A DNA stretch of 64,000 bases, taken from NCBI GenBank assembly GCA_049322955.1, contig JBMOPU010000012.1:543199-607198 (forward strand). Direction: 5' to 3'. Source of the DNA: Patescibacteria group bacterium (GTDB lineage: Bacteria; Patescibacteriota; Microgenomatia; UBA10105; UBA927). The notes below the pieces were generated by a model. That model was not told the DNA's origin. It ran no database searches and was given only the letters and a program-made list of their open reading frames with translations. Shown here one piece after another: positions 10,318 to 15,615 of the stretch. The translations under genes were made by a program, and so were the position numbers. How positions within the stretch are numbered: the first letter of the stretch is position 1; each line of letters starts with the position of its first letter.

Positions 10318-11352
10318 ATGAAACGCACAGTCATCGTATTTCTGGGGTTCCTCATTTTTATCGCCGTCGCGGCGGGTATTCCCAGAGGGAACGGTTCCCG
10401 ATCATTTTTACCCGTTCCGTCCACCGGACTTTTTTCGCCCACCCCGACCCCATTTCCGTTTGTCGAAATGACCGTGCCGTATCTTCGCGGTCGAGGGTAT
10501 GACAGTGCGTTAGGCGAGCAAACAAAAGTTTCCGAAACGACTACCTATACTTCATATACGACGAGTTATATCTCGGACGGACTTCGTATCAACGGATTGC
10601 TCACGGTACCGAAAGGGGAGTCTCCGGATGGCGGATGGCCTGCAATCGTATTCGTGCACGGGTATATCCCGCCCGCCCAATACAGAACCACCGAAAATTA
10701 CGTTTCCTATGTGGATTATCTCGCGCGAAACGGGTTTGTCGTATTCAAAATAGATCTTCGCGGTCACGACAAATCCGAAGGAGAACCCGGAGGCGCATAC
10801 TATTCATCAGACTATGTGATCGATACGCTCAATGCCAGAGCGGCACTGGAAAAGGCTTCGTTTGTAAATAAAAAGAAGGTCGGCTTGTGGGGGCATAGCA
10901 TGGCGGGAAACGTGACGATGCGCGCTTTTGTCTCCGAGCCGGATATTCCTGCCGTAGTTATCTGGGCGGGAGCCGGCTATACCTACACCGATCTTGCGAC
11001 CTATCGGATATCGGATACCAGTTATCGGCCGCCGGAAGTTGCTTCCAACAGACAACGCCGACGTGATGAGTTACGCGCCCAATACGGGGAATTCTCCGCC
11101 GAACACCCGTTTTGGAAACAGGTTGCGGTAACCGAGTACCTCAAGGATATAACCGGAGCGCTAAACATTCACCATGCGGTTGATGATGCGGTGGTCAGCA
11201 TCGAGTACAGCAGAAACCTCATGAAACTTCTGGATGCCACAACAGTTGAACATGCGCTCTACGAATATCCCGGCGGGGGACACAACATAAGCGGCGCGTA
11301 TTTTACGACCGCGATGCAACGCACCGTCGAATTCTTCAAACGACATCTTTAA
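10318..11352 (+). CDS. Alpha/beta hydrolase (dienelactone hydrolase / S9-peptidase-like), secreted or membrane-anchored
   Basis: N-terminal signal/TM helix, nucleophile elbow GHSMAG, C-terminal catalytic HH.D region. Start is 3 nt after the ABC transporter stop. Confidence 0.6.
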   Translation: MKRTVIVFLGFLIFIAVAAGIPRGNGSRSFLPVPSTGLFSPTPTPFPFVEMTVPYLRGRGYDSALGEQTKVSETTTYTSYTTSYISDGLRINGLLTVPKGESPDGGWPAIVFVHGYIPPAQYRTTENYVSYVDYLARNGFVVFKIDLRGHDKSEGEPGGAYYSSDYVIDTLNARAALEKASFVNKKKVGLWGHSMAGNVTMRAFVSEPDIPAVVIWAGAGYTYTDLATYRISDTSYRPPEVASNRQRRRDELRAQYGEFSAEHPFWKQVAVTEYLKDITGALNIHHAVDDAVVSIEYSRNLMKLLDATTVEHALYEYPGGGHNISGAYFTTAMQRTVEFFKRHL

Positions 11353-11750
11353 GTATTCATTTCAATAACGGGCGGGAGTGTCGTGCCCTGCGGAATAAAC
11401 CGCAATGACAGGGAGTTGACGCAGTGTCGGGTATTTTTGAGGGTAAAGCGCTCTCCGATAAAGACATGTCCTAAATGTCCGTCACATGTATTACAGCGGA
11501 TTTCCACTCTTCTGCCGTCGGGATCCGGAAGACGCCGTACCGCATCGGGATACGTATCATCAAAGGCAGGCCACCCGCACCCCGCGTCAAACTTCGCCTT
11601 GGCGCTGTATAACGGTGCGTTACAGCGCCTGCATATATACGTGCCCTCCTTAAAAAAAGCGTCGTACTCGCCGCTTCCCGGCGGTTCGGTACCGCGATTG
11701 ACGATGACGGAGGCTTCTTCATCGGTTAAGGGATTGTACGCGGGGGACAT
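11349..11750 (-). CDS. msrB: Peptide-methionine (R)-S-oxide reductase MsrB
   Basis: GTEPPGSGEY, two CxxC pairs (CRRCNAPLY ... CNTCDGHLGHVF), catalytic RHCVNS motif. 3' end overlaps the convergent hydrolase gene by 4 nt. Confidence 0.9.
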   Translation of the reverse strand: MSPAYNPLTDEEASVIVNRGTEPPGSGEYDAFFKEGTYICRRCNAPLYSAKAKFDAGCGWPAFDDTYPDAVRRLPDPDGRRVEIRCNTCDGHLGHVFIGERFTLKNTRHCVNSLSLRFIPQGTTLPPVIEMNT

Positions 11751-11757
11751 GTCGTTA

Positions 11758-12396
11758 TTATACCGTACTTTTTTTCACGATTGCCCGGTTGATGAGAACG
11801 AACCAAAGCAGGACGGGCAGTGCGATTGCCTTCTGAAAAATACCGCGATATTCAAGGAATACCCCCATAAAATAAAACACAAACCACACAATGCTCCCCG
11901 CAAGCGCCGTAAATCCCGCCACAAGGGTCACGGGCGCATACGGGGCAAGATGCTTTTCTTTGCGAAATACCGCCGCCAGCTTGGTGATTCCGAGAGGAGA
12001 GAGTAGGAGAAACAGCATGACCGCACTGATATGGACTAAACCCGTCGGTGTAAGAAGGGTATAGTCAAGCGGGACGTTTTCAATAGGATCGGTGGGAATA
12101 AACGCGGCGATGATAAGAAAAAAACTGCACAATCGGAAGATTATACGGATGACCGCATCTTCCTGCGGTTGTTTCACTAGAAGCCGCGTCAGATGAATAC
12201 CGGTCACATATATGCCCGCGGCAAGTTGGAGAAAGTTTATGCTTTGTATCCATCCGTATCGTTCGATGGCAAGCCGGCTTATCGTGTGATTAAGGTGGTT
12301 ATACCCCGGGGTAATACTCCCCAAAAAGAATACGATGATGACAAAGAGTATCGGGCTGAAACGGGCAAGCCTCATCGGGATCATAGGTGTTCTCAC
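11758..12396 (-). CDS. Polytopic membrane protein (DUF998-like)
   Basis: Six predicted TM helices, 212 aa. Start overlaps the stop of the upstream bactofilin-like gene by 4 nt. Confidence 0.45.
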   Translation of the reverse strand: MRTPMIPMRLARFSPILFVIIVFFLGSITPGYNHLNHTISRLAIERYGWIQSINFLQLAAGIYVTGIHLTRLLVKQPQEDAVIRIIFRLCSFFLIIAAFIPTDPIENVPLDYTLLTPTGLVHISAVMLFLLLSPLGITKLAAVFRKEKHLAPYAPVTLVAGFTALAGSIVWFVFYFMGVFLEYRGIFQKAIALPVLLWFVLINRAIVKKSTV

Positions 12397-13577
12397 ACGA
12401 GGTGTTTCGATCGCATCTGCCGGTACACATCCTGCTTTTCAAACAGAACGGCTCCGGTGCCGATAAGGACAAGAATGCCTTTGGCAAGCCATCCGAGGAT
12501 CGGAATAACGCTTACGATGCCAACAAGAATCATACCCGTCAAAAGTTGCCACGCGTTGTGCACACCTGTTGCGTTAAATCCCCGGAAAACACTTCTTCCG
12601 ACGAAAAGAGCGGCATAAATATGCCCCACGAAACAGAGGAGACCCAACACCGTGAAGAGAAAAATGCCGAGTGGAATACCGACGACCGTGAACAATGATG
12701 TTACCCCAAGGATGGGAAGCCCGATAACCGCCACGACACCGAGCCCGAATGATCCCCAGCCGTTTTTTCGCATCATATTTACCGTTTTTTCACTCAATGC
12801 CGGCATGAGCCACAATATGATAAGCCCGGCAATATACATGGCGACAAATCCCAAGGCAACGAGAATTGCCCCGATGGCGGAAACCGCCCCCACAAATCCC
12901 TTTGCCGTAGACGTTGCCACCTGAGACGCTTTTGCTTCGTCATCTTTTACCTCGTGAAAGATCATTTCTCCGGACAAGGTAACGTTATCCGCAACGACCG
13001 CCTCTTTCTGACTCCAGTATGTTATGTCTCCGGCAATTTTTGTCTTAGGTTGCAGGGCAATAGCTTCAGCGGCTAAGAGCACGTTGCCGCCGATAGTGGC
13101 GTTTGAAGTAAGTGTGCCGACCCCTGCGGTAAGTCCCTTTGCCAACGGACCGTAGAGATCAAGGGTGCCTGCTCCCGCAACCATACTGCCGCCCATTTTT
13201 GCCTGTGGGCTTACCATCACCGATCCCGCGCCGATCGTCACATTGCCGCCGACCGTATTCGTGAACGTGACCGTACCTCCGAGCGCGCGGACGTCATTTT
13301 TGACGGGACCTTCAATGCGGACCGTTCCGCCGGCGACCAACAAATCTCCGTTTATCGTGCCGTCAACGGTCACGACACCTCCCGCGACATACGCATCGCC
13401 GTTAACGGTTCCCGACAGATGTACCGAATCACCGGCGGCAAAATAATCGCCGTCGACGGTTTGCGCCTTTTCGAGAATGACATTGACGGGGGCATCTTTT
13501 CCCTTGGCGAGGGTCACCGGGACAAAAAATGACAAGGAAAGCAACATGAGGACAAATAGTTTCGCCAATAATTTCAT
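12393..13577 (-). CDS. Signal-peptide protein with bactofilin-like (polymer-forming cytoskeletal / beta-helix) repeats fused to a C-terminal multi-pass membrane domain
   Basis: Start set at MKLLAKLFVLMLLSLSFFVPVTLA (signal peptide). The ORF-track start 150 nt upstream lacks an RBS in good position. Repeats GDAYVAGGVVTVDGTINGDLLVAGGTVRIEG are typical of the bactofilin/DUF583 beta-helix. The last ~170 aa contain 4-5 TM helices. Confidence 0.5.
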   Translation of the reverse strand: MKLLAKLFVLMLLSLSFFVPVTLAKGKDAPVNVILEKAQTVDGDYFAAGDSVHLSGTVNGDAYVAGGVVTVDGTINGDLLVAGGTVRIEGPVKNDVRALGGTVTFTNTVGGNVTIGAGSVMVSPQAKMGGSMVAGAGTLDLYGPLAKGLTAGVGTLTSNATIGGNVLLAAEAIALQPKTKIAGDITYWSQKEAVVADNVTLSGEMIFHEVKDDEAKASQVATSTAKGFVGAVSAIGAILVALGFVAMYIAGLIILWLMPALSEKTVNMMRKNGWGSFGLGVVAVIGLPILGVTSLFTVVGIPLGIFLFTVLGLLCFVGHIYAALFVGRSVFRGFNATGVHNAWQLLTGMILVGIVSVIPILGWLAKGILVLIGTGAVLFEKQDVYRQMRSKHLV

Positions 13578-13879
13578 AGAATACATCTCCCTCTGAAAAC
13601 ACAATACATCCGATAGAGGTGCATGTAAATACGCACTGGGAGTTACGGGGTATAGCCGCAGGGAAGGGCGGGGGGAGTGCCGGAAGGATTCCCGTGGCGT
13701 GCCCATGAGCCGTTCACACAGACCCATGTATCTTCATTGCCGCCGATAAGGAATCGAACAACCAAACCTACAAATGCCGTGATAAGGATGATGCCTGCCG
13801 CCTTGATCCATCCGGTTCCCATAGCCGTATTATAAACCCGCAGGACAAGCGAAGCGGATATTTTGATACAATCGCATGC

Positions 13880-14863
13880 ATGGTGTGGCAAGGATTACCG
13901 CGTCCGTTTCTCGTCTTAGCACCCCTTGAAGGGGTGGCCGATACCGTATTTCGGCGGATTGTGATGTCGTGTTCGCGTCCCGATGTGTTTTTTACCGAAT
14001 TTACGAGCGCCGACGGCTTTTGTTCGCCGGGGAAAAAAGCGGTGATGGATAATTTTGTCTATGTACCGGAAGAACAACCGCTGATTGCCCAAATCTGGGG
14101 CAAAAACCCCGATACGATTAGGGAGACAGCCCGTGAAGCCGCGCTTTTGGGCTTTGCCGGGGTTGATATCAACATGGGGTGTCCCGACCGGACCGTCATG
14201 GCGCACGGCGGCGGCGGCGCCATGATCACGACACCCGAAATCGCCGCTTCCGTCATTGCCGCGGCAAAGGAAGGCATCCGTGCCTCAGGGAAGCAAATTC
14301 CAATGAGCGTGAAAACGAGAATCGGCAACAAACGCATCATCACGGAAGAATGGATTCGTTTTTTGCTGGATCAGGATCTTGCGGCATTGACCATTCACGG
14401 AAGAACGGTTGCAGAACTGTCCAAAGTTCCCGCGCATTGGGATGAAATCGGTAAAGCCGTGGCAATACGCGATTCCCTGGGTATTAAAACAACTATCATC
14501 GGCAACGGCGACGTCAAGGATGCCAAAGATGCGTTTGAAAAACATGGACAATACGGCGTTGACGGCGTAATGATCGGACGGGGTATTTTTCAAAACCCGT
14601 GGGCGTTTGATCGCTCGCCTCATCCCCATGTCGGCACTCCTGCTGAACTTATCGACGTTATGGAACGGCATATCAATTTATTTACCGATGTCTGGCGGGG
14701 AAAAAAGAATTACGCGATACTCAAGAAGTTTTATAAAATTTATATAAACGGTTTTCACAATGCGACCGACTGGAGGGTAGAGGCTATGGCAACCCAAACT
14801 CCCGAACAGGCACTGGCGCTAATAGCCCGTCTTCGTGATTCGGATGATCTGGCCTCCGGATAA
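13880..14863 (+). CDS. dus: tRNA-dihydrouridine synthase
   Basis: TIM-barrel Dus motifs LAPLEGVADTVFR, DINMGCP, LTIHGRT, FMN-binding region. Confidence 0.9.
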   Translation: MVWQGLPRPFLVLAPLEGVADTVFRRIVMSCSRPDVFFTEFTSADGFCSPGKKAVMDNFVYVPEEQPLIAQIWGKNPDTIRETAREAALLGFAGVDINMGCPDRTVMAHGGGGAMITTPEIAASVIAAAKEGIRASGKQIPMSVKTRIGNKRIITEEWIRFLLDQDLAALTIHGRTVAELSKVPAHWDEIGKAVAIRDSLGIKTTIIGNGDVKDAKDAFEKHGQYGVDGVMIGRGIFQNPWAFDRSPHPHVGTPAELIDVMERHINLFTDVWRGKKNYAILKKFYKIYINGFHNATDWRVEAMATQTPEQALALIARLRDSDDLASG

Positions 14864-14904: not shown

Positions 14905-15615
14905 ATGGGGAAGACGATATTTCAGCAATATATCGGAGCGATACTCTTCGGAGGAGTGATCGGGACAATTATTTATTTCGGGCAGATAGCGGGAGGGGAA
15001 TCGGCACTTTCATCGGTAAATATCAGTCTTGCCGCAACGACCCTTTTTCTCTTGGGGACCGTGTTGTTGCTTGGTCCGTTGTCGCGTCTTTTTACCGTCT
15101 TCGATTGGGCACTAAAATTTCGTAAGGAATTGGGGATCGTCAGTTTCTTTACGGCACTGCTTCACGTGTATATGGTCATGTTTCCGCTCGCAAGAAACGG
15201 ACCCTGGGGACTTTATGTTTCGCGGCCGTGGTCGGCGTATCCTGGGCTTGAGGCATTGATCATTTTGTTTGTCCTCCTGCTTCTGTCATGGAACTTCACC
15301 ATGCATGTCCTGGGAACAAAACTGTGGTGGCAAATCCAATATTGGGGCGCAAGGATAGCCTTTATGCTTATTGCCGTACATATGGTGGTGTTAAAATATA
15401 AAACGATTGTTTCCTGGGTGATTCCCGGTCAGGCGGAAGCGGCAACCGCGGGGGTGCACTTTCCGCCGCTTATCATTTGGGAAGCGCAGTTTGTGCTGTT
15501 TATCCTGGTCGTGCGATTATCCGAACTCTTCGGTAAGGATGCGGCTCGACGAATCACCCAAGGCATCGCATTGATTATCGTTACCACCATGCTGTGGTGG
15601 ATATTTCTTCGGTAA
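14905..15615 (+). CDS. Ferric-reductase-like transmembrane domain protein (YedZ/MsrQ-family-like heme-binding membrane protein)
   Basis: Six TM helices with His residues inside TM3 (LLHVYMVMFP) and TM5 (IAVHMVVL) as in Ferric_reduct/MsrQ proteins; 236 aa. Confidence 0.4.
   Translation: MGKTIFQQYIGAILFGGVIGTIIYFGQIAGGESALSSVNISLAATTLFLLGTVLLLGPLSRLFTVFDWALKFRKELGIVSFFTALLHVYMVMFPLARNGPWGLYVSRPWSAYPGLEALIILFVLLLLSWNFTMHVLGTKLWWQIQYWGARIAFMLIAVHMVVLKYKTIVSWVIPGQAEAATAGVHFPPLIIWEAQFVLFILVVRLSELFGKDAARRITQGIALIIVTTMLWWIFLR

Follow-up and report, generated by a model that had tools for sequence, protein, structure and literature searches.

Gene A and the architecture of its product

Gene A, the subject of this analysis, lies within a 64,000-nucleotide stretch of DNA from a Patescibacteria group bacterium (contig JBMOPU010000012.1; hereafter the window), where it is followed on the same strand by a membrane-protein gene of the DUF998 family and by msrB; coordinates are positions in the window, and all those of gene A refer to its minus strand. 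The open reading frame (ORF) extends over 12393-13727 (-), and translation likely begins at the ATG at 13577 (MKLLAKLF...), a position shared with homologues and preceded 9 nucleotides upstream by a Shine-Dalgarno sequence, GGGAG. From this start, the coding part (12393-13577, -) specifies a product of 394 amino acids; a search of the window for paralogues found none. An earlier note, prepared from the DNA sequence, had read the gene as encoding an exported protein of bactofilin-like repeats fused to a polytopic membrane domain, and had presented this architecture as unusual. The individual parts of that description agree with the results given below, but the architecture itself is already known: it matches that of the published HalB family and is catalogued in Pfam as DUF8173.

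The N-terminal 24 residues have the character of a signal peptide, as had been claimed. The call is based on features of a family alignment of 118 sequences (alignment A2), in which the residue at position -1 of the predicted cleavage site is Ala in 116 sequences and that at position -3 is V, A, T, I, or S in 114. The n-region has a net positive charge in 97% of the aligned sequences, the median for the uncharged core being 18 residues. With such features, the gene A product would be expected to be exported by the Sec system and cleaved after Ala24.

A 17-residue unit of the form (Y/L)xxAGGxVxVxGxVNGD is repeated between residues 45 and 204, giving eight clear rungs with irregular ones at both ends. 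The periodicity is pronounced, with a BLOSUM autocorrelation at lag 17 of 0.82 compared to a maximum of 0.26 across 500 shuffles of the sequence. An AlphaFold2 model of the full-length product generated with alignment A2 has a mean pLDDT (predicted local distance difference test) score of 92.7, and it presents a right-handed beta-helix of approximately 10 rungs at residues 32-209 followed by a segment of low confidence at approximately 210-227. The remaining helices of the model (residues 214-257, 259-271 [short], 273-294, 300-333, 341-357, and 361-390) have pLDDT values above 90, and identical helices were obtained when the C-terminal domain was modelled alone (pLDDT of 93; predicted template modelling [pTM] score of 0.80). 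Hydropathy likewise indicates five membrane spans, the first two separated by a short amphipathic helix; of the four to five transmembrane (TM) helices proposed earlier, the higher number holds.

The beta-helix is predicted to lie outside the cytoplasmic membrane and the five-TM bundle to end with a basic C-terminal tail on the inside. This orientation follows from the signal peptide, from parity with five spans, and from the positive-inside rule, as well as from the experimental topology of HalB. The mean number of Lys and Arg residues is 2.6, 2.7, and 4.3 in the three predicted cytoplasmic segments and 0.0 in both of the short turns that are predicted to be on the outside. These values, together with the conserved signal peptidase I site, bear out the extracytoplasmic placement of the repeats that had been predicted. 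The earlier note had added that the repeats would be cytoplasmic if the N-terminal segment served as an N-in membrane anchor, which was a misframing; an uncleaved N-in anchor leaves them outside all the same. A variant that leaves the hydrophobic N-terminal segment unexported, and makes of the repeats an ordinary bactofilin in the cytoplasm, held to the membrane by both ends, has as its precedent the canonical bactofilins, which are cytoplasmic and often possess an N-terminal membrane-targeting sequence (PMC11459167). It is nonetheless very improbable; the N-terminus would have to face outward although the n-region has a net charge of approximately +2, and in all 118 sequences the basic tail and three loops rich in K/R would lie outside, in breach of the positive-inside rule. 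Moreover, the nearly invariant (V/A/T)-x-A motif makes sense only as a cleavage site, and the homologous HalB has been demonstrated experimentally to expose its repeats to the outside (PMC11459167).

Relationship to bactofilins and the HalB family

Judged from sequence at the level of the family, the gene A repeats are clearly related to those of bactofilins, in keeping with the initial assignment. In individual scans of the 118 relatives, 28 (24%) matched the Pfam Bactofilin model (PF04519) at E ≤ 0.1 with a best E of 9e-12, 37 matched the FapA beta-solenoid model (PF03961; best E = 2e-6), and hexapeptide or left-handed hexapeptide-repeat (LbH) models were practically absent. The best match to the family profile among all PDB sequences is also a bactofilin. 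The canonical bactofilins, such as BacA of Caulobacter, TtBac of Thermus thermophilus (PDB 6RIA/6RIB), and CcmA (all PF04519), are cytoplasmic and peripheral proteins of approximately six windings with disordered tails and an N-terminal membrane-targeting sequence. The gene A product does not fit this description; it falls below the PF04519 threshold, is predicted to be exported and membrane-integral with five TM helices, and, with its approximately 10 windings, is nearly twice as long.

Three other solenoid families were considered. The matches to FapA (DUF342), which are weak to moderate and include a relative named 'FapA family protein' in one NCBI record, are attributable to the shared solenoid repeat; FapA-type proteins are cytoplasmic with additional N-terminal domains, and none of that architecture is found in the gene A product. 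The LbH acyltransferase fold was rejected, having given repeat-driven weak matches only and poor superpositions. Also rejected were the two-partner secretion (TPS) and autotransporter adhesins; passengers such as HxuA (4I84), HMW1 (2ODL), and EtpA (8CPK) resemble the gene A product only in their fold, a generic right-handed solenoid. No TPS or autotransporter Pfam match was obtained with the gene A product or its relatives. Gene A has no sequence-family relation to these proteins, no TPS motif, and no TpsB or beta-barrel partner, and its product ends in an inner-membrane domain of alpha-helices; nothing implies an outer-membrane pathway.

The architecture of the gene A product corresponds to that described for halofilin B (HalB; HVO_1237, UniProt D4GX31) of Haloferax volcanii (Curtis et al., PNAS 2024, PMC11459167). 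HalB comprises a Sec/signal peptidase I (SPI) signal, an extracellular bactofilin domain, an unstructured segment, and five TM helices, to which a short sixth helix is added along the inner leaflet; the bactofilin domain has five windings in HalB and up to ten in homologues. Exposure of this domain to the outside was verified with an impermeant HaloTag ligand, and the isolated domain (bHalB) polymerises in vitro into bundles. In the cell, HalB forms static foci at negative curvature, and deletion of halB flattens the disk-shaped cells. The family was reported to number 2,304 UniProt members, 1,813 of them bacterial, and the seed list in the supplement includes a protein from Candidatus Falkowbacteria, a bacterium of the candidate phyla radiation (CPR) (all PMC11459167).

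With HalB, the gene A product shares the order of signal peptide, extracellular beta-helix, linker, five TM helices with a short inner-leaflet helix, and cytoplasmic C-terminus. Its family has an N-terminal signal that by sequence would be of the Sec/SPI type, followed immediately by a right-handed beta-helix of the bactofilin type within the range of 5-10 windings. In the model, five TM helices are accompanied by a further short helix, the sixth, along the inner leaflet; this helix, residues 259-271 between TM1 and TM2, matches the sixth helix of HalB, described as running parallel with the inner leaflet. Bacteria, the CPR seed among them, are already part of the published family, for which as many as 10 windings are allowed. 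Differences are found in the number of windings (approximately 10 in gene A and five in HalB), the linker (a helical stalk of approximately 14 residues compared to a long flexible one said to lift the HalB domain by ~75 Å), the C-terminus (a 15-residue basic tail compared to a disordered cytoplasmic tail), and the host, which is a small-genome bacterium with an uncharacterised envelope. In the window, no partner of the HalA type was seen.

Homology of the membrane domain connects the two sets of proteins. Among the matches listed for the gene A product, 120 of 120 homologues of equal length, with identities down to approximately 33%, are labelled PF26514 (DUF8173), the label being taken from precomputed annotations or by contig look-up. 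A local Pfam scan found no PF26514 match in the gene A product or any of the 118 relatives, a local NCBIfam scan of the gene A product returned nothing usable, and a literature search on DUF8173/PF26514 found no papers. PF26514 is common to the haloarchaeal members: the top 120 haloarchaeal proteins from a search seeded with a Halobellus homologue, none of them from Haloferax, all have PF26514, and about half have PF04519; the names they bear are 'bactofilin family protein' or 'DUF8173 domain-containing protein'. The profile of the gene A family also aligned by hhalign with a 'polymer-forming cytoskeletal protein' of Haloarcula pelagica over 338 columns (probability 99.9, E = 1e-35) that begin with the signal peptide and run through the whole TM domain, and this haloarchaeal protein lies above the Pfam Bactofilin threshold (E = 4e-13).

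The family is both large and widespread. An exhaustive profile search recovered 20,714 clusters at 50% identity with E ≤ 0.001, and 7,103 with E ≤ 1e-30. Genome matches within the Microgenomates were found in the Gottesman-, Curtiss-, Levy-, Davies-, Roizman-, Woese-, Woyke-, and Blackburnbacteria, and others in the Nitrospirota, Dadabacteria, Thermodesulfobacteriota, and Ignavibacteriales; a tblastn search against plasmids added Acaryochloris (cyanobacteria), Sulfitobacter, and several haloarchaea. Many of the genome records (L004, L008, L011, L014, and others) are titled 'uncultured Gammaproteobacteria bacterium' (binchicken co-assemblies), although in gene content and nearest relatives they resemble Patescibacteria; such titles have the look of taxonomic placeholders and are unsuited to phyletic counts.

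Genes and features around gene A

Table 1. Features of gene A and its surroundings (positions in the window)
Feature	Position	Strand	Details
Predicted signal peptide of gene A, residues 1-24	13506..13577	-	MK..K n-region, hydrophobic core, T-L-A|K cleavage motif
Predicted extracytoplasmic right-handed beta-helix, residues 25-213	12939..13505	-	N-terminal cap and ~10 rungs of 17-19 residues, GD-x-x-V-A-G-G-x-V-x-V type
Helical stalk (residues 214-227) and DUF8173 membrane domain	12396..12938	-	TM1, short amphipathic helix 259-271, TM2, conserved G-I-P turn, TM3, TM4, TM5, 15-residue basic tail
DUF998 (DrmA/Frag1-like) six-TM membrane protein, 212 aa	11758..12396	-	PF06197, E = 2e-20, full length
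msrB, methionine-R-sulfoxide reductase, cytoplasmic	11349..11750	-	PF01641 (SelR), E = 3e-39; NCBIfam PRK05508, E = 4e-57, above cutoff
Possible small gene, 59 aa, one TM helix and Cys-containing tail	13643..13822	-	Tail EDTWVCVNGSWxRHGNP...PCGY; ends 65 nt before gene A
Promoter-like site TTTACA-17-TATTGT	13601..13629	-	Consensus scan; between small ORF and gene A; weak evidence

The identities of the two genes downstream of gene A, DUF998 and msrB, were confirmed (Table 1), the latter lying just outside the interval to which the earlier note had assigned all three. That note had also recorded an overlap of 4 nucleotides between gene A and the DUF998 gene; this holds with the GTG start at 12396, which overlaps the gene A stop, and fails with the alternative ATG at 12384, 12 nucleotides downstream, which leaves a gap of 8 nucleotides and is used in the gene calls of contigs carrying a 92%-identical relative. 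The two genes are tightly packed either way, and msrB begins 7 nucleotides past DUF998. On its other side, msrB (-) converges with an alpha/beta-hydrolase gene at 10318-11352 (+), the stop codons of the two overlapping by 4 nucleotides (11349-11352) and leaving no room for a terminator of either.

From this arrangement, a functional module had been proposed in which MsrB repairs oxidised Met residues in the exposed beta-helix. It has in its favour three genes on one strand, separated by the 4-nucleotide overlap or 8-nucleotide gap and then by the gap of 7, an order that is kept in five Gottesmanbacteria-like genomes and in three near-identical metagenome contigs. However, a survey of the neighbourhoods of 80 genome loci, and of the three metagenome contigs with the 92%-identical relative, limited this linkage to a single clade. 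DUF998 directly follows gene A in eight of the 80 genome loci, all Gottesmanbacteria-like with at least 53% identity, and in the three contigs (L001-L011 overall), and a profile hidden Markov model search of the other 72 genome loci found no DUF998. In five of the eight, msrB comes after DUF998, such that the full order of beta-helix, DUF998, and msrB, for which the earlier note had suggested looking in related genomes, occurs in five of 80. Within the same clade, dus and an ABC (ATP-binding cassette) transporter are equally collinear, as is the alpha/beta-hydrolase gene in five of the eight loci, which is the mark of general synteny.

The properties of the proteins also argue against repair. 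The msrB product has neither an N-terminal hydrophobic segment nor a signal peptide, and for want of an export signal it is taken to be cytoplasmic. Met is scarce in the exposed domain, at 1.0% on family average, and the four Met residues of the gene A product align with T, I, or L in relatives, none being conserved. At greater distance, msrB was observed within 5 kb in five Microgenomates loci without DUF998 (L032, 2832-3371 [-]; L070, 1279-1683 [-]; L015, L024, and L068), which is a further point for the module and commoner than chance for a single-copy gene; these loci may be phylogenetically related, and their msrB mostly reads from the opposite strand or lies kilobases off, in two of them immediately downstream but convergent. 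The repair module is hence largely refuted, with very little probability left to it. DUF998 and msrB are neighbours of gene A by lineage-specific synteny, not obligate partners, because DUF998 is limited to the closest clade, in which the wider neighbourhood is collinear too.

A functional tie between the DUF998 and HalB-type proteins is possible within the Gottesmanbacteria-like clade. A DUF998 protein of Enterococcus faecalis, DrmA, has been linked to cationic glycolipid homeostasis (PMC13370385), and the product of 11758-12396 resembles this member of the Frag1-like clan in its full-length match to PF06197, its six TM helices, and its size class. In contrast to DrmA, a lipid phenotype is known for no CPR member, and the adjacency to a HalB-type gene is limited to one clade.

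Elsewhere in the window, a gene at 14905-15615 (+) encodes a 236-residue polytopic membrane protein with a borderline match to Ferric_reduct (PF01794; 27.4 bits against a cutoff of 28) that resembles MsrQ/YedZ, the haem partner of a periplasmic methionine sulfoxide reductase. It lies approximately 3 kb from the cytoplasmic msrB and is kept in the same synteny block in eight loci; no MsrP was seen in the examined part of the window.

All-against-all clustering of the flanking ORFs of the 80 loci revealed no conserved partner of gene A; the two largest clusters consisted of ORFs antisense to gene A itself. Long ORFs of this kind over the beta-helix coding region, for example at 13165-13446 (+) in the window and at equivalent positions in L004-L083, appear repeatedly (in 56 and in 26 of 80 loci). 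They arise as by-products of the Gly/Ala/Val-rich repeat, are not genes, and could mislead automated synteny analysis or gene calling. Among the haloarchaea, three plasmids (L084, 414-1157; L087, 2652-3356; L088, 2650-3354) have a gene for a CPBP/CAAX-type intramembrane glutamic endopeptidase adjoining the DUF8173/bactofilin gene. This enzyme may be a conserved partner there, but its gene is absent from the CPR loci.

Upstream, the 59-residue ORF is probably a real small membrane-protein gene. It belongs to no Pfam family, and tblastn located ORFs of 60-67% identity directly upstream of gene A in two of the relatives (L006 and L010) and approximately 0.8 kb upstream in another (L005). The promoter and terminator scan that returned the promoter-like site found no more sites in the region than expected by chance. 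In the 92%-identical relative (L001, 4726-6090, compared to 13491-13903 of the window), an extra gene for a 339-residue protein without a Pfam match lies between dus and the HalB-type gene, while only approximately 300 bp separate dus from gene A in the window. Other relatives exist in forms with and without such an insert, dus ending either approximately 1.2 kb or approximately 50-300 bp upstream, and the interval between dus and the HalB-type gene is an indel hotspot.

A proposed scaffold of the cell envelope

Gene A is, with good probability, a Gottesmanbacteria-like CPR member of the HalB/DUF8173 family of exported, membrane-anchored bactofilins, for which a scaffold mechanism is proposed. 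The domain architecture, the homology, the conserved cleavage motif, and the modelled right-handed beta-helix carry the assignment; polymerisation and the scaffold role would follow by analogy with HalB. The Sec system would export the N-terminus for cleavage by signal peptidase I after Ala24, and the right-handed beta-helix of approximately 190 residues and 10 rungs would fold on the outer face of the cytoplasmic membrane. A short helical stalk would connect it to the conserved bundle of five TM helices and one amphipathic helix, leaving the basic C-terminus in the cytoplasm. As with HalB of H. volcanii, the exposed beta-helices would then self-associate or bind to an envelope layer, probably through rungs 1-2, and the assembled beta-helices would act as a static envelope scaffold or patch. 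The earlier suggestion of a membrane-anchored envelope scaffold is thereby consistent, by analogy, with the results obtained for HalB in Haloferax volcanii (PMC11459167).

Conservation along the protein is informative with respect to the fourth of these steps. Mean identity falls steadily along the beta-helix, from 0.82 in rung 1 and 0.80 in rung 2 to 0.55 in rung 9, and to 0.23 in the stalk. Because conservation is highest in rungs 1-2 and declines toward the stalk, the sequences point to the membrane-distal N-terminal end as an interaction surface. Bactofilins use head-to-head contacts, and a conserved membrane-distal end would be consistent with contacts of this kind.

Several points weigh against this interpretation. 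The gene A product itself gave no Pfam Bactofilin match, even at E ≤ 1, and the match of the family profile to the T. thermophilus bactofilin is marginal (E = 0.023), as is that of the gene A model to the same protein, which was the top Foldseek match (E = 0.01). The full-length pTM of the model is just 0.57, making the orientation of the two domains to each other uncertain. The link to HVO_1237 is made via the haloarchaeal relatives and the match to the published description of its features, not by direct alignment. With a stalk that is short and helical, a beta-helix twice the length of that of HalB, and no disordered cytoplasmic tail, the geometry within the envelope may differ. We know of no bacterial HalB-type member for which polymerisation has been shown.

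Alternatively, the exposed beta-helix could be a non-polymerising binding module, an adhesin or receptor contacting a host cell or an envelope polymer in the service of episymbiosis, a lifestyle for which the earlier note had considered the protein relevant. This is unlikely. The structural matches share only 14-17% identity with no sequence-family signal, the signals in sequence being those of Bactofilin and FapA only. Adhesin tips usually vary, and the approximately 80% identity of rungs 1-2 across phyla is atypical of them. Finally, full-length or near-full-length homologues occur in the Nitrospirota, Dadabacteria, Thermodesulfobacteriota, Acaryochloris, Sulfitobacter, and haloarchaea, so that the function cannot be specific to episymbiosis; the size of the family and its spread to Nitrospirota, cyanobacteria, and archaea argue against a role of that specific kind.

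The conservation of the membrane domain invites a different proposal, that the DUF8173 five-TM bundle is the functional core, be it a sensor, a channel, or a lipid-handling module, and that the beta-helix is its extracytoplasmic regulatory or gating domain and no cytoskeletal element. Invariant or near-invariant Gly and Pro residues are distributed throughout the bundle (G251, P259, G280, P288, G300-I301-P302, G327, G348, P359, and G375), and conservation of the G-I-P turn (0.79) reaches the level of the best rungs, which exceeds the needs of a passive anchor. Two family members also weakly match the EI24/CysZ membrane family (E = 6e-4), and the bundle has no solved structural relative. This proposal is nevertheless considered improbable. 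More speculative, and doubtful, is the idea that in the Gottesmanbacteria-like clade a HalB-type protein has been recruited into a lineage-specific envelope module, with the small Cys-containing membrane protein upstream and the DrmA-like DUF998 lipid regulator downstream. The DUF8173 bundle would there couple the state of the external scaffold to membrane-lipid homeostasis and not serve as a passive anchor.

The analysis of gene A is of practical value mainly as a correction. The architecture has been described previously and is widespread in free-living lineages, and it represents no invention specific to the CPR or to episymbiosis; nor does the msrB/DUF998 neighbourhood give ground to be read as a functional system. 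Further interest attaches to the role of the conserved membrane domain. To our knowledge, no bacterial HalB-type protein has been the subject of experiments, and knowledge of how the envelope of CPR/Patescibacteria is built and shaped is very scant; a highly conserved exported bactofilin in the Microgenomates is a reasonable candidate for an envelope component to be sought in cryo-electron tomography maps.

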